Below, one piece after another: positions 7,769 through 64,000 of a stretch of DNA of 64,000 bases. Every line of letters begins with the position of its first letter. Position 1 is the first letter of the stretch. Location: positions 1 to 64,000 of the IMG/VR virus record IMGVR_UViG_3300021963_000038. One strand, 5' to 3'. Below the pieces are notes generated by a model that did not search any database, was not told the origin of the DNA, and worked only from the letters and a program-made list of their open reading frames with translations. Both the position numbers and the translations under genes were made by a program. The stretch is from a virus.

Positions 7769-9823
7769 ATGGCAAACGCACGTTTACAAATTTCTGACCT
7801 TGATTTTGACACAATCAAGAATAATTTAAAATCGTACCTACAACAACAATCTGAATTTACAGATTATGATTTTGAAGGTTCTAGTTTAAATATTCTGTTG
7901 GATATTCTGGCTTATAACACTCATTATAATGCTTACTACTTAAACATGGTTGCCAATGAGGCATTCATGGATACCGCTTTATTGCGTGATTCGGTTGTTT
8001 CTCATGCTAAGACTTTAAATTATGTTCCGTTTTCTTATTCTGCACCTAAAGCAATTATCAACATGACGGTAACGTCTTTAAACGATACACCAGGAACTTT
8101 AACACTTCCTAAAGGCTTTAGTTTTAGTTCAAATTTAATTGATAACATTTCATATAATTTTGTTACTCTTAAAGACACAACTGTAACTAAATCAAACACA
8201 TCATATTATTTTGAAAATTTAGAAATCTATGAAGGTAGATTGGTTGATTACGTTTATACATTTAATAGAAATTCAAATCCAAAATCAATTTTTACTTTAC
8301 CTGATTCTAATATTGACACAAATACATTGTATGTAACTGTAGCTGATGTGAGTGGAAATTCAGCAACACAAGTTTATAATAAAGTTACAGAAATTTTAGA
8401 TGTTGATTCCACATCATTAGTTTATTTTTTACAAGAATCTAAAAAAGGTAACTATGAAATATATTTTGGTGACGGTGTAATTGGCAAAGCTCTTACCGAT
8501 GGTTCTACTGTTACTGTTAGTTATCTTGTAACATCAGGTATACCAGCCAATTCTGTTGATGGATTTATTGCTGATTCTTCAGTTGGTGGATTTACCGATG
8601 TTACAATCGATGTTGTAGCAGCCGCCAGTGGTGGTGCGATTCGTGAATCTGTTGATTCAATCAAATATTCTGCGGCCGCACAATATGCTAATCAAAATAG
8701 ATTGGTGACACTTAAAGATTATGAAACATATATTCAATCGAAATATACCAGTATAGATTCATTATCTGTTTGGGGTGGTGAAGATGAACCCACACCTGTA
8801 TATGGTAAAGTTTTTATTGCACTAAAACCAAAAACAAATTTTTATATTTCAGAGTTAGAGAAAGCTCGTATTATTTCTGAAATTGTTGACCCAAAATCTA
8901 TCGTAACTGTTCAAGCAGAAATTCGTGACCCCGAATATTTGTATTTGTCTGTTGAATCTTCTGTGCAATATGACCCAAGAAAAACTGTTTTAACAGAAGA
9001 TGCAATTAAAACAAATATTAGAAATGCAATCATATCTTATCGTAATACATTCTTAAATAAATTTGGTGCAAGTTTTATTTTATCAAAACTTCAAGAGAGC
9101 ATTGATTCAACTGATATTAATTCTATATTAGGTTCAGAATCAACTGTTCGTGTTCAACGCCGTTTTGAACCTTTATTAAATCAATCGGCAAGTTATAACA
9201 TTTATTTTAATGTACCTTTACATCGTGGTACGATTACAAATAAATTAACATCGACCGAATTTAATGTATATGATAATACTGGTACATTAAGAACTGCACA
9301 GTTCGATGAATCACCACAGTCATATACAGGTATTTCTGAAATACAAGTTGTTGACCCAGGTTCTGGATATACAACTGCACCAACAGTTACAATTAATGGT
9401 GATGGTTCTAATGCAACAGCAGAAGCAACTATTGTAAATGGCCGTATTCAAAAAATTACAGTTACAAATCGTGGTATCGAATATACTAGAGCAACTGTAA
9501 CCATCTCCGGTGGTAATGGATTTGGTGCGGCCGCACTTGCTGTTGTTGATGCAAAAATTGGTACTTTAAGAACCATTTATTATGATTCATTGGCACAAAG
9601 ACAAATTATTAATGCTAATGCAGGTACAATTTACTATGATGATGGCCTTGTGGTTGTTAACGATATAAGATTTTTAGCTGTTAGTTCAACAGATAATTTG
9701 ATTCGCATGACAATTGAGGCTGAAAAAGGTATTATTCAATCAAAGAGAAATACTATTATCACAATTGATTCAACAGACCCAACAGCAATCGTTACCACAT
9801 TAACAAAAAATAATAAACAATAA
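7769..9823 (+). CDS. gp6: Baseplate wedge protein (gp6-like)
   Basis: LDFDTIKNNLKSYL..FTDYDFEGS..LLDILAYNTHY..NEAFMDTA; YFGDG; QNRLVT..DY. Confidence 0.95.
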   Translation: MANARLQISDLDFDTIKNNLKSYLQQQSEFTDYDFEGSSLNILLDILAYNTHYNAYYLNMVANEAFMDTALLRDSVVSHAKTLNYVPFSYSAPKAIINMTVTSLNDTPGTLTLPKGFSFSSNLIDNISYNFVTLKDTTVTKSNTSYYFENLEIYEGRLVDYVYTFNRNSNPKSIFTLPDSNIDTNTLYVTVADVSGNSATQVYNKVTEILDVDSTSLVYFLQESKKGNYEIYFGDGVIGKALTDGSTVTVSYLVTSGIPANSVDGFIADSSVGGFTDVTIDVVAAASGGAIRESVDSIKYSAAAQYANQNRLVTLKDYETYIQSKYTSIDSLSVWGGEDEPTPVYGKVFIALKPKTNFYISELEKARIISEIVDPKSIVTVQAEIRDPEYLYLSVESSVQYDPRKTVLTEDAIKTNIRNAIISYRNTFLNKFGASFILSKLQESIDSTDINSILGSESTVRVQRRFEPLLNQSASYNIYFNVPLHRGTITNKLTSTEFNVYDNTGTLRTAQFDESPQSYTGISEIQVVDPGSGYTTAPTVTINGDGSNATAEATIVNGRIQKITVTNRGIEYTRATVTISGGNGFGAAALAVVDAKIGTLRTIYYDSLAQRQIINANAGTIYYDDGLVVVNDIRFLAVSSTDNLIRMTIEAEKGIIQSKRNTIITIDSTDPTAIVTTLTKNNKQ

Positions 9824-55486: not shown

Positions 55487-56041
55487 ATGACAAAAAAACA
55501 TTATGTAAACAATGCTGACTTTCTTACAGCACTTATAGACTATCGTGCTAGATGCGATATTGCCAAGACGGAAGGTAAGGAAGACCCTAGAATACCAGAC
55601 TATATTGGTGAATGCTTTCTAAAGATTGCAGAACACCTATCAAGGAAGCCAAACTTCATCTCATATTCTTTCCGAGATGAAATGATTGCTGACGGCATAG
55701 AAAACTGTCTGATGTATTTCCGAAACTTTGACCCAGCAAAGTCAAAGAACCCATTCGCATACTTCACCCAAATTATTTACTTTGCCTTTCTCCGTAGGAT
55801 TATGAAAGAGAAAAAACAATTGTATGTTAAGTACAAGGCAACACAACAATTCGGTATTTTAGATGAAGGTGAAATGTATGAAGATACAGACGGCAATATG
55901 AAACAGTTTGAACTGTATGATAACATTGCTGAGTTTATTGAAACCTTTGAAGAAAACCGAGAAAAGAAAAAGAAGATTAAGGTAAAAGGACTAGAAAAGT
56001 TTATTGAACCATCTGATTTAGAAATACCCAAAGAACTATGA
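55487..56041 (+). CDS. gp55: Late transcription sigma factor gp55
   Basis: HYVNN..F; YIGECFLKIA..LS.KPNF..Y; EMI.DGIENC; NPFAYFTQI.YFAFLRRI.KEK. Confidence 0.96.
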   Translation: MTKKHYVNNADFLTALIDYRARCDIAKTEGKEDPRIPDYIGECFLKIAEHLSRKPNFISYSFRDEMIADGIENCLMYFRNFDPAKSKNPFAYFTQIIYFAFLRRIMKEKKQLYVKYKATQQFGILDEGEMYEDTDGNMKQFELYDNIAEFIETFEENREKKKKIKVKGLEKFIEPSDLEIPKEL

Positions 56042-57105
56042 AATTGATTATTTTAGGTGACACTCATTTTGGTATGAGAGGTGATTCTTTAGAGTTTCAC
56101 AATTATTACAAACGATTCTATCAAGAAGTATTGTTCCCATATGTTGTAAAGAATAACATCACAACTATCTTTCAGATGGGTGATTTGTTTGACCGCAGAA
56201 AGTTTATTAATTTTAATACACTATATCTCTCAAGACAATATTTCTTCAATACAATAAAAGAACTTGGTATTCAATTTCATACCATACTTGGTAACCACGA
56301 CATTTATTATAAGAATGTTCTTGAGGTTAATTCATCACAGATGTTACTTAAAGATTATGATAACATTATTGTTTATGATGAACCGAACAAAGTGGTGTTT
56401 GATGGTGTTGATGTTGATGTGATACCTTGGATTTGTGCCGACAATGAAATGGAGATTAAAAAGTTTATTGAAAACTCCACTTCACAAATTTGTTTTGGGC
56501 ACTTTGAAATTGCTGGGTTCGAAATGGACAAAGGCAATGTATGCCATGAAGGGCTTGACAAAAGCATATTAAAGAGATATGATATAGTGTTGAGTGGCCA
56601 CTTTCACCATAAATCTTCTGATGGCCAAATTACCTATGTTGGTACGCCAGGTGAAATGACATGGACTGACTACAATGACCCAAGAGGTTTTCATGTGTTT
56701 GATACCGAAACTAGAGAGATGGAGTTTATACAGAATCCATATCGTATGTTTCATAAAATATCATATGATGACACCGTATCTGACTTTGAATTTTGGAAAT
56801 CGTTTGATTACAATGCACTGAAAGAAACATATGTAAAGGTGATTGTTGTTAACAAACAAAACCCATATCTATTTGATAATGTGATTGATAACTTGTATAA
56901 GGCAGGTGTGTCAGATATATCAATCGTTGAAGATTTTACCGACAACTCGGTTGAAAACGATGATGAATTGGTCAATCAGGCAGAAGATACAATGACAATT
57001 CTTGGAAAGTATATTGATAATTTAACACTCAATGTTGATAATGATAAACTGAAAGCTTTGATGAGAGAAGTCTATGTCGAAGCATTGACAACTGAAACTG
57101 AATGA
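56038..57105 (+). CDS. gp47: Recombination endonuclease gp47 (Mre11/SbcD-like)
   Basis: GDTHFG; GDLFDRRK; GNHD; GHFE; SGHFH metallophosphoesterase motifs. Confidence 0.95.
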   Translation: MKLIILGDTHFGMRGDSLEFHNYYKRFYQEVLFPYVVKNNITTIFQMGDLFDRRKFINFNTLYLSRQYFFNTIKELGIQFHTILGNHDIYYKNVLEVNSSQMLLKDYDNIIVYDEPNKVVFDGVDVDVIPWICADNEMEIKKFIENSTSQICFGHFEIAGFEMDKGNVCHEGLDKSILKRYDIVLSGHFHHKSSDGQITYVGTPGEMTWTDYNDPRGFHVFDTETREMEFIQNPYRMFHKISYDDTVSDFEFWKSFDYNALKETYVKVIVVNKQNPYLFDNVIDNLYKAGVSDISIVEDFTDNSVENDDELVNQAEDTMTILGKYIDNLTLNVDNDKLKALMREVYVEALTTETE

Positions 57106-58814
57106 TATTATTTCGTAAGATTAAATGGAAAAACTTTCTTTCAACAGGTAACTACTTTACTGAAATTGAGTTTGATACATCACCCAATACATTAGTTGTA
57201 GGTGAGAATGGTGCAGGCAAATCAACTATGTTGGATGCTCTGTGTTTTGTTTTGTTCAGTAAACCATTCCGTTCTGTAAATAAACCTCAACTACTCAACT
57301 CAATCAATGGCAAAGATTGTGTGGTTGAGGTCGAGTTTAATGTTGGTAATAAAGCCTATCGAATCATTCGTGGTATTAAACCAAACATATTTGAAATCTA
57401 TTGTGATGGTGAACTAGTCAATCAAGATGCTGCTGTGCGTGATTACCAGGAGTATTTGGAAAAGTTTGTTTTAAAATTAAACTATAAATCATTTACTCAA
57501 ATTGTTATTTTAGGTAGTGCATCGTTCACTCCGTTCATGCAGTTATCTGCCGCTGATAGACGGTCTATCATTGAAGAATTATTGGACATTCAGATATTCT
57601 CTGCAATGAATAATATCATCAAAGAAAAAATGTCTGTCAATAAAGAAACAATGGCAACCAGAAAACATGAGATTGAACTCACTCAGCAAAAACATGATAT
57701 GCATAAAAAACATATCGAAGAACTGAAACAAAACAACGATGATAAAGTTAGAGAATATGAGAAAGAGATTGCCAACAATCAAGTTATCATAGAAGAACTT
57801 ACTGCAAATAGTGATTTATTTCTTACAAGAGTTGGTGAGTATACCAAAGAAGTTTCTGATAAACTTGATACAGAGGCAAGACTTAAAACTATTACCAAAC
57901 TTGAATCACAAATAGAAAGCAATCTGTCGAAGTACCGAAAAGATATTAACTTCTTCCAAGATAATGATAATTGTCCTACTTGTAGACAAACTATTCAATT
58001 AGATTTTAAAGAGAAAGAAGTTGCGGCACTACACACCAAAAAAACTGAGTGTGAACACGGCTTGAAAAAGTTGGAAAGTAAACTGATACAGGAACAAACT
58101 AAACTGAATCTCATCAATGAGAAACAGAAACAAATTCAACAATTACAAATTAAGATTGCTACCAATAATACTTCTATTACTGAAACACAGAAGTACATTA
58201 AGAAATTGGAAAAGCAAATTAAAGAGTTAACGGAGAATAAATCATCAACAGAGAAAGAATCGAAACAGCTAAAAGAATTAGAGGATTGTCTGTTGAAACT
58301 ACAAGTAGAGTTAAAGCAATTAATAGAAGAAAAAACATATTACGAAGTTGCCTCTGGTTTGTTGAAAGATACAGGTATCAAGACCAAGATTATTAAACAA
58401 TATTTACCAATCATCAATAAGTTGGTGAACAAATACTTGGCATCATTTGACTTTTTTGTTAACTTTAACCTAGATGAATCATTCAAAGAAACAATTAAAT
58501 CTAGGCACCGTGATGAGTTTACATATGCCAGTTTTTCTGAAGGTGAGAAACAGAAGATTGATTTGGCACTTTTATTTAGTTGGCGTGCCGTTGCCAAATT
58601 GAAGAACTCTGCCAACACCAATCTGTTAATACTTGATGAGGTGTTTGATTCTAGTTTAGATGCCAACGGCACAGAATATTTGATGACTATACTTCAGATG
58701 CTTGAAGGCACTAATGTGTTTGTAATATCTCACAAAGGAGATATTCTACAAGATAAGTTCCGTAATGTCATTAAGTTTGAAAAGGTAAAAAACTTTAGTA
58801 GGATTATGAAATGA
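57102..58814 (+). CDS. gp46: Recombination ATPase gp46 (Rad50/SbcC-like)
   Basis: GENGAGKST Walker A; CPTC zinc hook; FSEGEK signature; LILDEVFD; ISHK. Confidence 0.96.
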   Translation: MILFRKIKWKNFLSTGNYFTEIEFDTSPNTLVVGENGAGKSTMLDALCFVLFSKPFRSVNKPQLLNSINGKDCVVEVEFNVGNKAYRIIRGIKPNIFEIYCDGELVNQDAAVRDYQEYLEKFVLKLNYKSFTQIVILGSASFTPFMQLSAADRRSIIEELLDIQIFSAMNNIIKEKMSVNKETMATRKHEIELTQQKHDMHKKHIEELKQNNDDKVREYEKEIANNQVIIEELTANSDLFLTRVGEYTKEVSDKLDTEARLKTITKLESQIESNLSKYRKDINFFQDNDNCPTCRQTIQLDFKEKEVAALHTKKTECEHGLKKLESKLIQEQTKLNLINEKQKQIQQLQIKIATNNTSITETQKYIKKLEKQIKELTENKSSTEKESKQLKELEDCLLKLQVELKQLIEEKTYYEVASGLLKDTGIKTKIIKQYLPIINKLVNKYLASFDFFVNFNLDESFKETIKSRHRDEFTYASFSEGEKQKIDLALLFSWRAVAKLKNSANTNLLILDEVFDSSLDANGTEYLMTILQMLEGTNVFVISHKGDILQDKFRNVIKFEKVKNFSRIMK

Positions 58815-59578
58815 ACTTTCAAGAATATCTATCACACTACAAACAGGTAATCGATAAAGAAGTCGAGGGATGGTTTTATCCCAAAGATATCATTATCACA
58901 TACGGCATACTGAAAGAGTTACAAAGACCTAAAGGTGATGTGTGTGAGATTGGTGTCGCATATGGTAAAAGTGCCATTATGATTTCACAATTCAAAGATG
59001 ATAGCAATTTTTATTTGTATGATATCTTTAGTGAAGAAGCCAGACTTGTTGCTGAAAATAACATATCAAAGTTTGGTAACAATTTGAATTTGAATTGGCG
59101 GTTACAAGATACAACACAATTAAAATATGATGATGTTGTTTTTAAAGATGATTTGAGATTTCTCCACATCGATGGTTGCCATGAACATTCTGCCGTATTG
59201 AGTGATTTAATATTGTTCAGTAGTAAGATGAGAGATGATGGTGTTATTGCGATTGATGATTTTCAAGACCAAGAATATCCAGGTGTTAATAGTGCAGCAT
59301 TTCAATTTTCATTGTCGAATGGTAATTATAAAAATTGGAGAGTATTTGCCATAGGTGACAACAAAGCATATATGTGCCAAAAGAAATACGCTGAACTATA
59401 CCAAAAATCTTTAGTTGACTATATTGTTAAGGCAAAAGAAAGATATAATGTGCCGTTTGAAATGCACTTGGGTTTGCGTGAAGTGTTAGACATGAATGTT
59501 CTTATGTGTGATTCTAGAACTTCATGGGATCCAAATGTCATTAAAGAATCTTTATTTGATAAACCAATTATAGGGTGA
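58811..59578 (+). CDS. Class I SAM-dependent methyltransferase (Methyltransf_24-like)
   Basis: CEIGVAYGKS motif I; YLYD; FLHIDGCH; GVIAIDD..YPGV. Confidence 0.8.
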   Translation: MNFQEYLSHYKQVIDKEVEGWFYPKDIIITYGILKELQRPKGDVCEIGVAYGKSAIMISQFKDDSNFYLYDIFSEEARLVAENNISKFGNNLNLNWRLQDTTQLKYDDVVFKDDLRFLHIDGCHEHSAVLSDLILFSSKMRDDGVIAIDDFQDQEYPGVNSAAFQFSLSNGNYKNWRVFAIGDNKAYMCQKKYAELYQKSLVDYIVKAKERYNVPFEMHLGLREVLDMNVLMCDSRTSWDPNVIKESLFDKPIIG

Positions 59579-59581
59579 TTT

Positions 59582-59773
59582 ATGGGTGATTTTAAAAAAT
59601 TACATGAGTTTACCGATGGTCGAAATCGAACTGGTCAGGTATTCTATACAGGCAAAGATAACTACATGGTCTTGCTTTTTGAAGCGGACTTAGATTATAA
59701 TGAGATGAGAATCTTCACTAATGAAGAAGAATCTAAAAAATGTGCAATGAATTGGGTACCAATATATGAGTGA
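59582..59773 (+). CDS. Small hypothetical protein
   Basis: 63 aa; fills the gap between neighbours; RBS-like AGGGTG. Confidence 0.6.
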   Translation: MGDFKKLHEFTDGRNRTGQVFYTGKDNYMVLLFEADLDYNEMRIFTNEEESKKCAMNWVPIYE

Positions 59774-60356
59774 AATTTTAACCATCAATACAGAAGCGGG
59801 TCTATTCAAAGAAGAAACGATTGAACCGTTGCCGTTATATAATGAACATCACCCGATGTTACAACAACCTATTCCAGAATATGACTTGAGAACTCTACCT
59901 AATCCTGTTATGACTAAATTAGTCAAACGATTAAAGATGACGATGAAGATGTATAGTGGTTTGGGACTATCAGCAAATCAATGTGGTGTATTCGAAAGAG
60001 TATTTGTGATTGGCAATGAAGATATGATTATTCCGTGTATTAATCCCAAAGTAATCAGAGTATCTGAAAAGACAGACAAAAACAACGAAGGGTGTTTATC
60101 GTTTCCTGGTTTGTTTTTGAAAATTGAAAGACCCATATCTGTTGATGTGGAATTTCATAATGAAAACGGCAAGTTGGTTAATACAACATTTGAAGGTCTT
60201 ACTGCAAGATGTTTTCTGCATGAATTAGACCACATGAATGGTATTCGTATGATTGAACACACAAAGCCATTAGCACTACAAATGGCAAGACAAAAACAAC
60301 AGAAGTTAATTAAAAAAGTGAAAAGAACTCAGAAAAATAATGGCATACTCATTTGA
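59766..60356 (+). CDS. def: Peptide deformylase
   Basis: All three PDF motifs: GLGLSANQ, EGCLS, HELDH. Confidence 0.93.
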   Translation: MSEILTINTEAGLFKEETIEPLPLYNEHHPMLQQPIPEYDLRTLPNPVMTKLVKRLKMTMKMYSGLGLSANQCGVFERVFVIGNEDMIIPCINPKVIRVSEKTDKNNEGCLSFPGLFLKIERPISVDVEFHNENGKLVNTTFEGLTARCFLHELDHMNGIRMIEHTKPLALQMARQKQQKLIKKVKRTQKNNGILI

Positions 60357-61677
60357 CCCAAAAGATGATGTAGAAGAACAATGGCGTAAATGGCAAGAAG
60401 CCAATCCGCCAGATTCTTTTATGGATATTAATGAAGATGAGTTGCGTGAGCAAACCATCAAAGACCTTACCTATGTGTCGGCTATGGATGTCCGTGAATA
60501 TACACTATATCAGAAATGGTGTGAAATCAAAGACAAGTATCCCACATTTGTGAACAATACATTATTCGGTGAAGAAGTACAATTGGTTGACCCAAAACAA
60601 CAAGTGTTGGTAGATGAAGTTAAGAATAACATTTGGTTGCCTGAAAGTCCTGATGACTATTTGAATCTTGAACCTGTATTGATTTACACCGATGATTCTG
60701 GTTCTGTATCACGCAAAGGTGTTGATGGTACAGTTGTTGAAGATAAAATTAAACGTAGTGATTTACCTGAAAGATGGAACACGGCACGAAACTTTATCTC
60801 GACAATGAAGAACAATAGTAACATTGGTCGCAATCTTAACTTTCTTGTTGCAGACAATAAGACAGGTAAGTATCTTGGTGTTATTTGTATATCATCAGAC
60901 TTTCTTGATTTAACACCAAGAGATAATGCGATTGGTTGGCCTCGTGAGTTAAAGACACAAGGTGGTATGATTAATCATACTGCAATTGGTTCTACAATTG
61001 TTCCGTTTCAACCACTTGGTTACAACTATGTTGGTGGTAAGTTACTTGCATTGCTTTGCCTATCAGATGAAGTGCAAAGATTGTGGAAGAAACAGTATGG
61101 TGATACCTTGATTGGTGTAACAACAACATCATTGTATGGTAAAACTAAAGCAGGTGGTCTATCACAATATGATAACCTTGACCATTGGAATCCTATGGGC
61201 TTCTCCTCTGGTTCTGTATCGTTTGAACCAAATAGAGATACACGTTATAAAATTCGTGAATGGTTGAAAGCAAATCATACCCGTAAATATTTCGAATGGT
61301 ATGTTGCAAAGAAAGCAAGTGGTCAACCACATAAACGTGACCATAAGAATCGTTCTTTAAATTTCACTTACTCTAAGATGAGTATACCAAAAGAATTGAT
61401 TAAGGCAGAACATCATCGTGGCATTTATTTCAGTCCACTATACAACAACTCGTTTGAGTTCTTGCGTGGTGATATCAAAGAAACAGAATTGGTTAAATCG
61501 TTTGATACCAGTTATGAATCTTTGACAAAGATATGGAAAGAAAAACACGCTAAAGGTCGTATCGGTTTTCTAAAGAAGAAAGACAAGGTATCAACCGAAA
61601 CTTTGTTCTATGATGATTTGATATATCTTACATGGGAAGAAACAAAGGCAAAGTATCTTGGCCAAGTCGGCAGATAA
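60340..61677 (+). CDS. DUF4338/DruA-like protein (putative GNAT/Mom-like transferase)
   Basis: GRNLNFLV.D..TGKYLGVI..RD..IGW..P..P.GYN..GGKLLA....S.EV...W...YG..L..VTTTSLYG..SQY..L; no other Druantia genes in the window. Confidence 0.7.
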   Translation: MAYSFDPKDDVEEQWRKWQEANPPDSFMDINEDELREQTIKDLTYVSAMDVREYTLYQKWCEIKDKYPTFVNNTLFGEEVQLVDPKQQVLVDEVKNNIWLPESPDDYLNLEPVLIYTDDSGSVSRKGVDGTVVEDKIKRSDLPERWNTARNFISTMKNNSNIGRNLNFLVADNKTGKYLGVICISSDFLDLTPRDNAIGWPRELKTQGGMINHTAIGSTIVPFQPLGYNYVGGKLLALLCLSDEVQRLWKKQYGDTLIGVTTTSLYGKTKAGGLSQYDNLDHWNPMGFSSGSVSFEPNRDTRYKIREWLKANHTRKYFEWYVAKKASGQPHKRDHKNRSLNFTYSKMSIPKELIKAEHHRGIYFSPLYNNSFEFLRGDIKETELVKSFDTSYESLTKIWKEKHAKGRIGFLKKKDKVSTETLFYDDLIYLTWEETKAKYLGQVGR

Positions 61678-61689
61678 TAAAAATAGTGC

Positions 61690-61718
61690 TTGCTTTTGTG
61701 AAAAAAGTCCTATATAAT
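61690..61718 (+). promoter_or_regulatory. Sigma70-type promoter driving the tRNA-like RNA
   Basis: TTGCTT (61690-95), 17 bp, TATAAT (61713-18); no plus-strand ORF in the track before the terminator at 61840. Confidence 0.85.
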
Positions 61719-61738
61719 TATAACATAGTAAAAAATAT

Positions 61739-61807
61739 GCGGTGGGTTGGATAACAAATTGAGGTACCCCCTTAATCAACTTTGTGAAACTCAAAGACAC
61801 CGCTCCA
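61739..61807 (+). tRNA. Non-canonical tRNA-Gly-like RNA, anticodon ACC, encoded CCA
   Basis: Acceptor GCGGTG/CACCGC + T discriminator + CCA; mini D-arm TTG-GATAA-CAA; anticodon arm TTGAG-GTACCCC-CTTAA; 4-nt variable loop; T-arm CTTTG-TGAAACT-CAAAG. Confidence 0.75.
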
Positions 61808-61839
61808 TCTTTCATTAAATCTCCAGTTCAATGAAACCT

Positions 61840-61875
61840 AAAACCCCTATTGCCCAAAGGTGATAGGGGTTTTTT
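61840..61875 (+). terminator. Rho-independent terminator after the tRNA-like RNA
   Basis: AAAACCCCTATTGCC-CAAA-GGTGATAGGGGTTTTTT. Confidence 0.88.
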
Positions 61876-61903
61876 CATTATTGCCACACAGAATTGGATT
61901 TTG

Positions 61904-61912
61904 TGTTATAAT
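61904..61912 (+). promoter_or_regulatory. Extended -10 promoter for ORF 61936
   Basis: TGtTATAAT; TTGCCA at 61881 is 20 bp away, so the -35 element is uncertain. Confidence 0.55.
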
Positions 61913-61935
61913 GACAACTTCAATAGGAGATTTTC

Positions 61936-62124
61936 ATGTGTAATGACAATGACTATTCGCATACCCTACTAGAACAGGAAGAAGAACATTTTTATTCCTG
62001 TGTTGCCGATGTTGTGGATGCCTTCAAAATTCATGGTACCGAAAACATCATGCGGGAAGTAAGTAAAAATACTTACATAAATCAAGAGCTTAGAGTGTTG
62101 TTTTCTGGCAACAAGACGGCTTGA
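61936..62124 (+). CDS. Small hypothetical early protein
   Basis: 62 aa with strong RBS AGGAG. Confidence 0.65.
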   Translation: MCNDNDYSHTLLEQEEEHFYSCVADVVDAFKIHGTENIMREVSKNTYINQELRVLFSGNKTA

Positions 62125-62178: not shown

Positions 62179-64000
62179 ATGCAAGATTATAGTGTCGAAT
62201 CAAAATCACAATTAGCGAAGTTGCTCGCTACTGAAAACCTGACTATTCAACACCAAAAAATCAGAACCGCAAAATTCGATACAGCGAATCGTGTTCTGTA
62301 TTGTCCAATTTGGGATAATATGACTGGTGATTTGTATGACCTTTTGTTAGGTCACGAAGTTGGTCATGCTTTATATACACCTAAAGATGGATGGCATGAT
62401 GCTGTTTGTGATAAAGGTGAAAATTACAAACGATTCCTTAATGTGATTGAAGATGCTCGCATTGAGAAAAAAGTCAAACGCAAATATCCAGGTATTCGTA
62501 AATCATTTATTAATGGTTATGCTAACCTTTTAGAACGTGATTTTTTCGGCATCAAAAATAAAAATGTAAATGATTTGGCATTTATCGACCGCTTGAACCT
62601 TTATACAAAAGGCGGTACAATGTTGGGTATTGCCTTTGATGAAAAAGAAAAAACATTGCTTGCTAAAGTTGAAGCAGTTGAAACATGGACTGATGTTTTA
62701 AATGTTTGTTCTGAAATTTTTGATTACTCAAAAGATGAACAATCGAAAAAACAAATCTTTTCACCATATGATGATTTTGAAGATTACGAAGATAATTATG
62801 GTGATGATGAAGAAATTGATGATGATTATGATGTTGAAGATTCTGATGAAGAATCAGATGATGAAAAACAAAATGTAAATTCGTCTGATGGTGATGCTGA
62901 AGAAACCGATGAAGAATTGGATGAAAAACAAAATGTCTTAAATCGTGAAAAGAATTCTAAAGCATTGGGTGAAGAAAGTGAAAAATTCGAACCCGATTGT
63001 GTTACTGATGAAGCATTTAGGCAGAATGAAGATAAATTACTTTCAGAAAAATGCCGTGATTTCCGTTACATGAATGTGCCTAAGTTGGTGAATCCCAAAT
63101 CTGTGTATACAGGTTACAAACGTGTTCACGAATTAATGGAAAAACATTTCAAAGAATACAATCCAGTAACTTATACGGATGGTACAGTTGATAAATTGGT
63201 GAAAGAATTCAAATCTCAAAATGAAAGATACATTTCATTATTGGCAAAAGAATTCGAAATGAAGAAGGCTGCAAAATCTTACTCTAAGGCCAAAATCTCC
63301 GATACTGGTGATATTGATATCAATAAACTTTACAAGTATCAAGTTGAAGATAATATCTTCCGTAAAATGACGGTTCTACCAAAAGGTAAATCTCACGGTT
63401 TGGTTTTGTTACTTGATAAATCTGGTTCGATGCGTGATAACATGAGTGGTTCTATCGAACAGATTTTGGTTCTAACCGCATTTTGCCGTAAAGTAAATAT
63501 TCCTTTTACTGTTTACGCTTTTAGTGATTATGACCATGCTCGCCGTATGGATGTAAGTGATGATGTTTTTGATAAAGAAAAAAATGTTGCGGCTTTCAGT
63601 AGAAATTCTGGTGAGATGGAACTAGGAGATGTTTATTTGCGTGAGTATTTGAATTCTACAATGAAAACTTCCGAGTATAATCGTTGTGTTAAGAATATGA
63701 TTTTGCTTGCCAATGCATACAATGTTTCATATAATACTCGCACACATTTTTCAATTCCACCATCAGAAGGTCTTGGTATGACTCCTCTGATTCAATCAAT
63801 CTTTGCAATTCAACCTGCAATCAGTAAATTCAAAGTGAAAAATAATCTTGACATTGTGAATTTAATTGTTGTGCATGATGGTGATGCCGATAGTTGTGGT
63901 TATCATTTGTATTATGATACTCAAAAAGAAAAAATGTCATGGAGTGGTTGGTCCCATGAGCGTGAAAATGTTTTCATTGCTGATAACAGTATTAAGTTTC
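62179..64000 (+). CDS. Partial CobT-like protein (HExxH metallopeptidase-like domain, acidic linker, vWA domain)
   Basis: Not in ORF track because it runs off the end. MQDYSVESKSQLAKLLATENL..LLGHEVGHALYTP..NVIEDARIE; D/E-rich linker; HGLVLLLDKSGSM MIDAS motif; VVHDGD. Confidence 0.85.
   Translation, partial: MQDYSVESKSQLAKLLATENLTIQHQKIRTAKFDTANRVLYCPIWDNMTGDLYDLLLGHEVGHALYTPKDGWHDAVCDKGENYKRFLNVIEDARIEKKVKRKYPGIRKSFINGYANLLERDFFGIKNKNVNDLAFIDRLNLYTKGGTMLGIAFDEKEKTLLAKVEAVETWTDVLNVCSEIFDYSKDEQSKKQIFSPYDDFEDYEDNYGDDEEIDDDYDVEDSDEESDDEKQNVNSSDGDAEETDEELDEKQNVLNREKNSKALGEESEKFEPDCVTDEAFRQNEDKLLSEKCRDFRYMNVPKLVNPKSVYTGYKRVHELMEKHFKEYNPVTYTDGTVDKLVKEFKSQNERYISLLAKEFEMKKAAKSYSKAKISDTGDIDINKLYKYQVEDNIFRKMTVLPKGKSHGLVLLLDKSGSMRDNMSGSIEQILVLTAFCRKVNIPFTVYAFSDYDHARRMDVSDDVFDKEKNVAAFSRNSGEMELGDVYLREYLNSTMKTSEYNRCVKNMILLANAYNVSYNTRTHFSIPPSEGLGMTPLIQSIFAIQPAISKFKVKNNLDIVNLIVVHDGDADSCGYHLYYDTQKEKMSWSGWSHERENVFIADNSIKF

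Follow-up and report, generated by a model that had tools for sequence, protein, structure and literature searches.

The window, i.e. the whole stretch of 64,000 nt that was analysed, belongs to a T4-like phage from water. In the region considered here, a gene of the DruA/DUF4338 family is followed on the same strand by a small RNA element, flanked by a promoter-like sequence and by a terminator. The features are the following:

60340..61677, + strand: gene of the DruA/DUF4338 family coding for a predicted GNAT of 445 aa (Pfam, PADLOC, AF2 model, VIA-align)
61690..61718, + strand: sigma-70-like promoter, with TTGCTT at 61690-61695, a 17-nt spacer and TATAAT at 61713-61718 (read from sequence)
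61739..61807, + strand: 69-nt reduced tRNA-Gly-like RNA (fold, model R1, covariation, invariant columns)
61810..61836, + strand: small hairpin located past the encoded CCA, ahead of the terminator (fold, sequences)
61840..61879, + strand: intrinsic terminator made of a 15-bp stem (61840-61873) and, after it, a T run (terminator listing)

The observation on which the initial annotation was built is confirmed: the TTGCTT-17-TATAAT promoter, the 69-nt RNA ending in CCA and the terminator are all read as had been claimed. The distance of "13 bp" between gene and unit is about right, the stop codon being 12 nt from the -35 hexamer.

The 445-aa ORF matches the Pfam DruA family (PF14236) over residues 157-377, with an E-value of 1.3e-19 and a score of 70.9 bits (curated gathering cut-off, 27), and is thus a member of it, as originally described; it is also matched by the PADLOC model DruA1 (E 5.7e-17), and a search of NCBIfam assigned it to no family. 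The DUF4338/DruA family includes 879 cluster representatives, and two DruA-like paralogues are found per genome; the paralogue of the 445-aa protein has 371 aa. Single distant proteins, P0008 and P0033, when used to search for related loci, retrieved 1 and 0 loci, respectively. In Druantia type I systems, DruA lies beside DruB, DruC, DruD and DruE; no match to these partners was found by PADLOC among the 34 window ORFs of at least 250 aa, in agreement with the absence of Druantia genes noted earlier, and the remaining matches were only generic ATPase/helicase ones, at the gp46-like ORF and at the helicase ORF. Within this set, the window does not qualify as a Druantia type I locus.

The protein is laid out as an N-terminal region of about 100 aa, not assigned to any family, and a GNAT core (residues ~107-390), which includes a helical insertion (~299-346). 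Residues 1-105, when compared to the ESM Atlas, matched only an unnamed viral cluster (0.75). An AF2 model of the protein, with a pLDDT of 93.0, was used for structural comparisons. By VIA-align, the Mom protein of phage Mu (8bv8) ranks first both with the protein model (Z 9.7, 183 residues aligned) and with the domain model (Z 10.4, 168 residues). These are the longest alignments, other GNATs being aligned over about 140-150 residues; in both searches, the Z values of ordinary acetyl-CoA GNATs, such as AAC(6')-Ib, SpeG and others, fall within 1 of that of Mom. A Z of at least 8 is reached by 86 chains, and the top rows of both Foldseek and VIA-align are all GNATs, with Z between 8 and 10.4 over ~140-183 residues; with the domain model, FemA (Z 9.2) ranks 9 and TacT3 (Z 8.4) ranks 47. 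The fold search proposed in the initial annotation thus puts GNATs on top, but Foldseek matches in the PDB are weak, with E-values of 0.03 or higher and none at E <=0.001. Matches in BFVD include a Mom protein, at rank 10. By its predicted core fold, the product of ORF 60340-61677 belongs to the GNAT superfamily, as had been suggested, and DUF4338 is termed a GNAT domain by Aravind's group in a passage of PMC10853773.

The relationship to Mom, also put forward from the start, stands at the level of structure, Mom being the best solved match, but not at the level of sequence: comparison by hhalign of a 62-sequence profile with Mu Mom gave a probability of 1.5%, i.e. no sequence-level relation, and the same profile found 0 matches against all PDB sequences at E up to 10. 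Neither sequence nor profile comparison places the protein within the Mom family, and the likeness is nominal. In the model, the helices at 299-346 lie between late strands; they may correspond in place to the helical (HTH-like) insertion required for Mom activity, as judged from secondary-structure order and aligned ranges, in a comparison where Mom is tied in Z with ordinary GNATs. Six residues (Q224, P225, G227, G232, G233 and K234) are nearly invariant and placed after the model strand 214-222. The acyl-CoA pyrophosphate-binding loop of GNATs has the form Q/R-x-x-G-x-G/A, and on the basis of the model secondary structure the QPxG...GGK stretch may occupy the place where the CoA pyrophosphate is bound in these enzymes.

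The RNA element begins (G1) 61 nt past the stop codon of the DruA-like gene and can be folded as a small cloverleaf, in which the acceptor, GCGGUG(G)/(A)CACCGC, is followed by a discriminator U and an encoded CCA, the D-like arm is a 3-bp hairpin and a 5-bp T-like stem carries a UGAAACU loop. The "anticodon" helix is 7 bp long, with a UACCC loop; a 7-nt reading, GUACCCC, provides an ACC "anticodon". The z-score of the cloverleaf fold, calculated on 61735-61880, is -3.83, a value equalled by none of 200 shuffles. ARAGORN found 0 tRNAs in the window and, with relaxed and mitochondrial settings, nothing at the RNA element; Rfam, searched over 61600-62000 with E-values as high as 10 allowed, yielded no tRNA and only sub-threshold chance rows. 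By either test (ARAGORN or Rfam RF00005) the element falls outside canonical tRNAs, and therefore "tRNA-like" is the right term, rather than "tRNA".

The -35 hexamer, TTGCTT, agrees with the consensus at 3 of 6 positions only, which is why the promoter is absent from the promoter-scan listing. In many relatives TTGACA-17-TATAAT is found at the same place, and a -10-like hexamer lies 1-20 nt before G1 in 53 of 68 loci. A hairpin with a T run, resembling a terminator, was found within 110 nt past the RNA in 39 of the 65 loci where enough sequence is available. As for the hairpin at 61810..61836, its loop motif, AAAUCUCCAGUUCA, is found again in locus L017 and, in altered form, in L035. In a separate observation, a 151-nt assembled contig from run X1, an RNA library, spans 61727-61877 with 8 differences, starting 9 nt after the -10 and ending in the T run of the terminator; contigs of 151 nt are frequent in that data set, and neither ends nor strand nor transcription can be read from a contig.

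An element of the form GCGG..CCGCTCCA directly follows the gene in 68 of the 76 related loci with a readable gene end. Of the other eight, four are on contigs that break off within 115 nt of the stop codon, and in four the element is absent within 330 nt. The 68 elements correspond to 34 distinct sequences, all of which share G1 C2 G3 G4, two loop Cs and CCGCUCCA, as the interior drifts. The drift preserves pairing: 94.9% of cells are paired, compared to 73.9% in shuffles, with 0 of 500 shuffles reaching the observed level, and double changes are seen at 16 of the 22 pairs of the cloverleaf; in slid controls, 35-51% are paired. All 68 loci have a T at -1.

A covariance-model search, suggested in the initial annotation, was performed with a model, R1, built from 10 long-class sequences. 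R1 matches the window RNA with 48.9 bits (E 3.7e-9) as the sole match in the 135.9-kb record, and in 514 kb of sequence it gives a single match per locus and none elsewhere. With E-values of up to 1 accepted, R1 misses a short class (L008, L012, L023, L038 and L039 types) and the pelagiphage forms, both of which were found by a pattern search. For the short class, where the MAFFT alignment places the loop in inconsistent registers, compensatory changes were read by hand and no model was built. Altogether the family of mini RNAs ranges in size between 63 and 70 nt, with a D loop of 3-5 nt; the loop of the short class is CCCA or UCCCAA (4-6 nt). The base at the wobble position is A, U or C across the family, and the CC following it is fixed.

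The determinants of bacterial tRNA-Gly, as given in the available part of PMC10464925, are G1:C72, C2:G71, C35, C36, U73 and a purine 4/pyrimidine 69 pair. The whole set is found in the element, the loop Cs being numbered 35 and 36 by analogy, and it is conserved along with compensatory changes, which bears out the glycine character attributed to the RNA at first. In phage records, genuine tRNA-Gly genes are picked up by this same end pattern. The mini RNAs of L265, L268, L281 and L304 are matched by neither ARAGORN nor Rfam, and their canonical neighbours score 46-69 bits. A 74-nt form in phage HTVC008M is reported by ARAGORN as tRNA-Gly(ACC), scores 49.5 bits in Rfam and has a canonical UUACCAA loop. 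In relatives, a canonical tRNA-Gly (UCC or GCC) adjoins the mini RNA, which is therefore redundant for decoding. That the RNA family is real, glycine-specific by its identity elements and redundant for decoding is well supported. Its members, which ARAGORN and Rfam miss, are abundant among T4-like phages of lakes and of the sea, and no prior description was found in the literature searched. In one GenBank record the mini RNA is overlain by a CDS for a 'hypothetical protein'.

The association of gene and RNA is close in the clade of the window: of its 59 distinct members, 57 have the RNA immediately 3' to the gene. In 15 loci the stop codon of the DruA-like gene and the RNA are separated by 2-6 nt only; there is therefore no room for a separate promoter, and the RNA is probably co-transcribed with the gene. 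A wider view is provided by an unbiased pattern scan, which yielded 49 genuine mini RNAs: 17 immediately follow the C-terminus of a DruA-like protein and about 25 lie within tRNA clusters, usually next to a canonical tRNA-Gly. All five larger records carrying a non-adjacent mini RNA also carry the GNAT gene. In the sister clade the mini RNA is located 7-9.6 kb downstream, in the phage tRNA cluster and often by a canonical tRNA-Gly(UCC), in 20 of the 27 loci with the full 10 kb downstream; in the pelagiphages HTVC008M and Mosig, the 74-nt form lies 3.9 kb and 6.5 kb away, respectively. The self-contained, dedicated unit described initially is thus a property of the window's clade, but not of the sister clade. 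Similarly, the presence of a neighbouring RNA at homologous genes holds for the 68 of 76 related loci but not for the cyanophage homologues: S-PRM1, S-CAM9, S-SM2, S-SSM7 and the marine virus AG-345-O18 have DruA-like genes and no mini-RNA match, and in S-SCSM2R, also with a DruA-like gene, the sole match is a canonical tRNA-Gly. The mini RNA is therefore dispensable for the enzyme family.

In a tree built from 161 proteins, the state of adjacency changes only 3 times, so that it is essentially one evolutionary event. Many independent origins were considered and rejected, 3 changes being opposed to 42-45 in the five runs listed out of 200 shuffles. As adjacency has arisen in a lineage with strong synteny, it may reflect inherited gene order.

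The reading that we tentatively prefer, with a confidence that stays somewhat below even, is that a glycine-charged, non-decoding tRNA paralogue gives its glycine to a Mom-like GNAT, probably for transfer onto DNA; the interpretation given in the initial annotation is, to this extent, partly supported. An early-type promoter of its own would drive transcription of the RNA, which in some relatives would instead form the 3' end of the GNAT mRNA or be transcribed with the tRNA cluster. RNase P would then trim it, U being constant at -1 and the CCA encoded. Charging with glycine by the host GlyRS is proposed because G1:C72, C2:G71, G3:C70, G4:C69, U73 and the anticodon CC are all kept. According to PMC10464925, GlyRS depends on the complete L shape and its arms, so that the stunted RNA may be poorly charged. 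The stunted D arm, the altered T loop and an anticodon helix either too long or too short, often with a loop of other than 7 nt, would exclude the RNA from ribosomal decoding, and the glycyl-RNA would be reserved, as acyl donor, for the DruA/DUF4338 GNAT encoded next to it. The enzyme would then, as Mom does, move the glycyl group to a nucleobase of the phage dsDNA, as an anti-restriction mark. Either of the two DruA-like paralogues of each genome, or neither, might be the user of the RNA. A broader version, in which mini tRNA-Gly is non-translating and serves solely as glycine carrier for DruA-family GNATs that aminoacylate dsDNA bases, with Druantia type I DruA also acting as a tRNA-dependent DNA marker, appears rather doubtful.

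Among the other explanations, it seems fairly unlikely that the mini RNA is functional but unrelated to the GNAT, being a decoy, sponge or regulator derived from a duplicate of tRNA-Gly and brought near the gene by historical accident. Such an RNA could, for instance, absorb a factor attacking tRNA-Gly or Gly-tRNAGly (TacT-type GNAT toxins, anticodon nucleases) or titrate GlyRS; TacT is cited in a passage of PMC13219725 as acting on Gly-tRNAGly. The frequent location of scanned mini RNAs in tRNA clusters, mostly by canonical tRNA-Gly, the single origin of adjacency to the DruA-like gene, and the retention of identity elements and not of decoding features would all fit. No candidate host factor was identified, however, and the RNAs set 2-6 nt past the GNAT stop (15 loci) are probably on the same transcript as the gene. 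True charging is also a better fit to the unvarying discriminator, to G1-G4 and to the encoding of CCA, although a decoy could need them too.

Transfer from a charged RNA has also to be weighed against an ordinary acyl-CoA chemistry, the DruA-like protein acting on a protein, a small molecule or a nucleic acid, next to an unrelated RNA. We consider this unlikely: Mom is on top in both structural searches with the longest alignment, and mini RNA and gene are together in nearly the whole clade (57/59). What keeps it in play is that AAC(6')-Ib, SpeG and other acetyl-CoA GNATs are so near to Mom in Z, that the nearly invariant QPxG...GGK stretch lies at a putative CoA pyrophosphate site, as judged from the motif and from our reading of the model, and that cyanophage homologues occur in genomes devoid of the mini RNA.

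That the RNA should be a tRNA-Gly which, though unusual, still decodes and supplements host translation as other phage tRNAs do is quite improbable. A canonical tRNA-Gly adjoins the mini RNA in many relatives, the wobble base varies freely, the loops of the short class are reduced to 4-6 nt and the D loop to 3-5 nt, and ARAGORN and Rfam refuse mini RNAs, yet accept their neighbours. The 74-nt form of HTVC008M, with its tRNA-Gly(ACC) call and canonical loop, would be compatible with decoding, as would the many mini RNAs within tRNA clusters and the long helix of 8-9 bp, which could replace stacked D and anticodon stems.

Finally, a mere RNase P or processing signal, or a decaying tRNA pseudogene, might account for a shortened element at an mRNA 3' end (15 loci) but is very improbable, as four helices kept by compensatory changes over at least 34 distinct sequences are unexpected for a pseudogene and a processing signal has no need for an invariant loop CC, a discriminator U or an encoded CCA.

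Transfer of glycine from the mini RNA to DNA, if true, would be of interest in several respects. Hypermodification of DNA that depends on tRNA is a recent finding, established for Mu Mom, which borrows tRNA-Gly from the host; here, a phage would bring a stripped-down donor RNA of its own, the first virus-encoded non-decoding aminoacyl carrier and about the smallest RNA still charged by a bacterial GlyRS. Gene and RNA together may be seen as a private DNA-disguise kit. DUF4338/DruA would obtain a testable biochemical function and, were the same true of DruA from Druantia type I, Druantia defence would obtain a self/non-self mark. Should the proposed link with the GNAT prove false, the RNA family would still deserve attention, abundant as it is and overlooked by tRNA finders.

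Known systems share some features with the pair described here. TacT and its relatives are GNATs binding the aminoacylated CCA end of tRNA-Gly, but in their case the tRNA is the victim and not the donor; moreover, TacT toxins are small proteins with antitoxin partners, and no such partner is seen at the window gene. The tRNA gene cluster of phage T4 includes small stable RNAs that are not tRNAs; they are found among T4-type tRNA genes, like the mini RNA of the sister clade, but are longer and are not known to resemble glycine tRNAs.

DruA of Druantia type I (PF14236) belongs to the same HMM family as the 445-aa protein. The window gene differs in being phage-encoded, in lacking DruB-E among the ORFs evaluated, in its location within a replication/recombination block and in its phage-specific N-terminus. 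Proteins of Synechococcus phages structurally similar to DruA are mentioned in a section of the Phold preprint (10.1101/2025.08.05.668817). No mechanism for DruA was found in the literature searched.

Staphylococcus aureus, according to the available text of PMC7826273, has non-proteogenic tRNAGly beside the decoding ones, with a proposed diversion from translation to FemXAB. In both cases glycine tRNA paralogues are found, and FemXAB, whose Fem fold is related to GNATs, is a transferase that depends on tRNA; the staphylococcal tRNAs, however, are full-size and recognised by tRNA finders, whereas RNAs of the window type are 63-70 nt long, negative with ARAGORN and Rfam, and phage-encoded.

The nearest parallel is Mom of phage Mu, which modifies dA in dsDNA by using Gly-tRNAGly, as reported in the portion consulted of Silva et al. 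(Nat Commun 2026, PMC13219725), where R111, S124, D149 and R151 are given as catalytic residues; the use of Gly-tRNAGly by Mom, put forward in the initial annotation, is therefore correct. Mom is likewise a phage enzyme of GNAT fold, and the best solved structural match to the 445-aa protein; the late helical insertion of the latter may correspond in position to the HTH-like one of Mom, as judged from the order of secondary structures and from aligned ranges, and a glycyl-tRNA donor is proposed, by analogy, for the window protein too. The two proteins have no sequence similarity and differ in size, 241 aa for Mom against 445 aa, with an extra N-terminal region, here. Mom draws on host isoacceptors, whereas the phage of the window would supply its own reduced donor.

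The window belongs to a 135.9-kb record of a T4-like phage, about 82% complete according to CheckV, whose nearest named relatives are the Pelagibacter myophages HTVC008M and Mosig (Kyanoviridae). The features surrounding its DruA-like gene are:

56038-58814, + strand: gp47/gp46-like SbcCD genes
58811-59578, + strand: 255-aa ORF with a weak match to a methyltransferase PHROG
59766-60356, + strand: peptide deformylase (phrog_2890, E 6e-39)
60340-61677, + strand: DruA-like ORF, 445 aa
3' of the ORF: promoter, TTGCTT-17-TATAAT
61739-61807, + strand: 69-nt tRNA-Gly-like RNA (mini RNA)
61810-61836: small hairpin, 3' of the CCA end and ahead of the terminator
61840-61873: strong terminator
further downstream, + strand: 62-aa ORF, then a large 'peptidase' starting at 62179

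The last 17 nt of the deformylase gene are shared with the beginning of the DruA-like ORF, and both are therefore probably translated from one mRNA. The loop motif AAAUCUCCAGUUCA of the small hairpin, which might act as a 3'-trailer processing element, recurs in the related IMG/VR locus L017 and, in altered version, in L035. A 151-nt contig assembled from RNA library run X1 spans 61727-61877 with 8 differences, extending from 9 nt past the -10 hexamer to the T run of the terminator. Depth is 0.41 in the promoter bin directly upstream (61663-61725); since contigs show neither ends nor transcription, this is no more than a hint. Beyond the window, 14 canonical tRNA genes are clustered at positions 133176-135897, reaching the record end (Leu x2, Glu, Lys, Tyr, Asp, Asn, Val, Ser, Ile, Trp, Pro, Ala, Arg); tRNA-Gly is not among these 14 and may exist past the end of the incomplete record.

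Related loci were collected from IMG/VR, where 365 stretches matched, 362 of them with an encoded relative. The best 80 were retained and combined with 2 pelagiphage loci, and the gene end was readable in 76 of the resulting 82. An element of the form GCGG-N40-75-CCGCTCCA follows the stop codon in 68 of these 76. In four of the eight others the contig ends less than 115 nt past the stop; in L079, L080, Mosig and HTVC008M the element is absent within 330 nt of it. The 68 copies correspond to 34 distinct sequences of 63-69 nt, with a mean column identity of 66%, in which the only invariant parts are G1 C2 G3 G4, the 3' CCGCTCCA, two Cs in the loop of the middle hairpin and three further positions dispersed along the RNA.

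The acceptor helix of the mini RNA comprises 5-8 pairs. The D-arm position is taken by a 3-bp hairpin, missing in the L062 type, with 3-5 nt in its loop, and next comes a middle helix of 5-9 bp, whose capping loop always contains CC (UACCC, CACCC, UUCCC, GUCCA, CCCA). A short linker leads to a T-side stem of 4-5 bp with a 7-nt loop (UGCGAAU, UGAAACU, UUUAACU, AGCAAAG), and the 3' end reads N, U and an encoded CCA. The invariant parts agree with the bacterial GlyRS determinants listed in the available text of PMC10464925 (G1:C72, C2:G71, C35, C36, U73, purine 4, pyrimidine 69). The end pattern also finds genuine tRNA-Gly genes in phage records. The base 5' of G1 is T in all 68 loci, and U at this site is preferred by bacterial RNase P. 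As a tRNA, however, the mini RNA goes unrecognised: ARAGORN reported none in the window, nor any at relaxed thresholds, and Rfam, searched up to E 10, gave no tRNA row for the element. Its tRNA model scored the canonical neighbours in relatives at 46-69 bits and left the mini RNAs beside them unmatched.

When each RNA was folded alone with five acceptor pairs imposed, an acceptor helix enclosing three hairpins was obtained for 22 of the 34 distinct sequences and for HTVC008M, i.e. 23 of 35. A covariance model built on 10 sequences matched 49 of 73 sources, once each and always directly 3' of the gene, and detected nothing further on either strand of the 514,060 bases searched; the window's whole record gave a single match. 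In the alignment of 25 distinct rows derived from this model, which is fitted to the model and hence biased toward the structure, 94.9% of cells pair versus 73.9% in shuffles, and both sides change in 16 of 22 pairs. None of 500 shuffles attained any covariation measure, and sliding the partner by 1-3 columns lowered pairing to 35-51%; the single-sequence folds are independent of this alignment. The reduced tRNA paralogues of aquatic T4-like phages, with glycine identity and a CCA end, securely form a conserved family, of which literature searches returned no prior description.

A second sampling of 160 further loci, with flanks up to 10 kb, was obtained by using the HTVC008M and L079 proteins as queries. 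In the L079-like sister clade, 62-68% identical to the window protein, the gene has no RNA directly 3'; an element of the mini RNA family, 67-70 nt long and ARAGORN-negative, is found on the same strand 7-9.6 kb downstream, in 20 of 27 loci with the full 10 kb. In 8 cases among the 80 loci of this set, a canonical 74-nt tRNA-Gly(UCC) lies no more than 200 nt past the element. The first 90 nt past the stop in L079 and L080 contain TTGACA-17-TATGAT and then, directly, a short hairpin and T run, an arrangement that looks like the promoter-terminator frame with the RNA taken out. The pelagiphages carry a 74-nt form, 3.9 kb downstream of the gene in HTVC008M and 6.5 kb in Mosig, with a canonical UUACCAA loop but an unusual D arm and T loop:

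Mosig MT647606.1, 7779-7852, - strand: 74-nt tRNA-Gly(ACC)-like gene, no tRNA or RNA annotation in GenBank
HTVC008M KC465899.1, 91140-91213, + strand: 74-nt tRNA-Gly(ACC)-like gene, no tRNA or RNA annotation in GenBank

The HTVC008M form is recognised as a tRNA by both ARAGORN and Rfam; that of Mosig is unmatched by Rfam at E up to 1 and is overlain by a 'hypothetical protein' CDS (Mosig_000011, 7774-7869).

An unbiased scan of IMG/VR with the pattern GCGGTG, 47-54 nt, CACCGCTCCA returned at least 120 stretches. Among the 80 matches listed, 31 have GC-rich surroundings and resemble chance matches, and 49 lie in AT-rich phage context; 17 of these 49 are directly 3' of a DruA-like C-terminus, and about 25 stand among canonical tRNA genes, mostly touching tRNA-Gly(UCC or GCC). 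Of the larger records in which the mini RNA is not adjacent, 5 of 5 encode the DruA-like protein. Three loci (L144, 4567-4708; L162, 1877-2015; L163, 5716-5854) carry a tandem pair of different mini RNAs directly 3' of the gene, one with a CCCC-type loop and the other with a GUCCA-type or similar loop.

The gap between stop codon and RNA is 2-6 nt in 15 of the 68 loci, leaving no space for an own promoter and implying probable co-transcription of gene and mini RNA; in the other 53 it measures 19-72 nt and includes a -10-like hexamer. A tree of 161 distinct DruA-like proteins was built by the quick method FastTree, after collapsing identical proteins and leaving out 7 with too short downstream sequence. 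The state 'RNA within 150 nt' changes 3 times on it, versus 42-45 times when shuffled (five runs printed of 200), and one clade with support 98 contains all 57 adjacent rows plus two exceptions, L160 and L143. Gain and loss of adjacency are indistinguishable because the tree is midpoint-rooted. The self-contained unit proposed in the initial annotation therefore holds for the window's own group and not for the sister clade, and the co-occurrence that this annotation proposed as a check, although found, amounts to one retained adjacency plus genome-level co-occurrence in a single lineage, without independent replication, which makes the linkage suggestive.

The assignment of the ORF to DruA/DUF4338 was confirmed by Pfam (70.9 bits versus a cut-off of 27), PADLOC DruA1 and phrog_19197; NCBIfam holds no family for it. 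The Druantia partners DruB-E are indeed unmatched among the 34 window ORFs of at least 250 aa. Searching 1.84 billion cluster representatives by phmmer retrieved 879 relatives (E up to 0.001). Among phages, 31 records carry homologues (25 Synechococcus-phage, 3 Pelagibacter-phage, 2 marine viruses, 1 cyanophage), and one cyanophage record names its copy 'methylcarbamoylase mom'. A second paralogue, roughly 370 aa long, is encoded in each genome of the window's group and was present in 5 of 5 other records checked:

83910-85025 of the window's record, outside the window: second DruA-like paralogue, 371 aa, 40% identity over residues 143-282

The Synechococcus myophage form is of this second type; it lies in the replication block just 3' of the gp44 clamp-loader gene (5/5 records inspected), with gp62 directly 3' of it in S-SM2, S-SSM7 and S-SCSM2R.

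The AlphaFold2 model of the ORF (62-sequence alignment; mean pLDDT 93.0, pTM 0.90) matched PDB structures only weakly in Foldseek, with no E below 0.03; GNAT-type acyltransferases made up almost all of the rows, and Mu Mom (8bv8) stood ninth. Re-scoring by VIA-align, in which rows up to 1 Z apart count as tied, placed Mom at the top (Z 9.7, rmsd 4.2, 183 aligned) and SpeG next (Z 8.8). Residues 100-445, modelled alone (pLDDT 90.7) and aligned to 48,161 PDB representatives without Foldseek, again ranked Mom first (Z 10.4, rmsd 3.8, 168/202 residues), followed by AAC(6')-Ib (9.9), FemA (9.2, rank 9) and TacT3 (8.4, rank 47). The comparison with predicted viral structures was led by uncharacterised proteins of giant viruses and phages; a Mom from a Salmonella phage came at rank 10 (E 2.4e-3). 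The first 100 or so residues are modelled as helices and a beta hairpin, and a search with residues 1-105 in ESM Atlas retrieved only an unnamed viral cluster at 0.75; helices 299-346 would fall between late strands, in the place of the HTH-like insertion that Mom activity requires according to the accessible part of PMC13219725. Given the tie rule, the predicted GNAT fold is secure, while the 'Mom-like' label of the initial annotation is nominal, best in name and with the longest aligned stretch in the models; hhalign against Mu Mom gave a probability of 1.5%, i.e. no sequence-level relation, and the ORF profile had 0 matches in a PDB sequence search. The fold assignment agrees with the classification of DUF4338 as a GNAT domain in the available text of PMC10853773, and DruA-like folds in six Synechococcus phages appear in the accessible portion of the Phold preprint (10.1101/2025.08.05.668817). 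A literature search found no DruA mechanism.

The reading tentatively preferred is that the mini RNA serves the GNAT as donor: it would be charged with glycine, kept out of translation and fed to the adjoining enzyme, DNA being the acceptor in perhaps two thirds of this expectation. A decoy or regulator unrelated to the GNAT, compatible with the copies lying among tRNA genes and set against the tightly spaced loci, is rather unlikely. Somewhat less likely still is an ordinary CoA-dependent GNAT with the RNA as unrelated neighbour; the acetyltransferase-type ties speak for it, the top rank of Mom with the longest aligned stretch and the adjacency kept in 57 of 59 clade members against. An odd decoder tRNA, in favour of which the HTVC008M form recognised by ARAGORN and Rfam speaks, is improbable: canonical phage tRNA-Gly occurs alongside the mini RNA, which is for this reason securely dispensable for decoding. 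A processing signal or pseudogene, suggested by the reduced form, is very improbable beside the covariation.

The donor reading finds its parallel in Mom. Mom does use Gly-tRNA as donor, as the initial annotation had correctly stated: glycine carried by Gly-tRNAGly is placed on N6 of adenine in dsDNA, the adduct rearranging to 6-NcmdA; all three E. coli isoacceptors are active and Gly-tRNAAla is inactive (PMC13219725, available text). An older comparative paper had assumed an acyl-CoA donor for Mom (PMC7824862, available text). The nominally nearest solved structure to the modelled GNAT beside the mini RNA is that of the one enzyme known to place tRNA-borne glycine on DNA.
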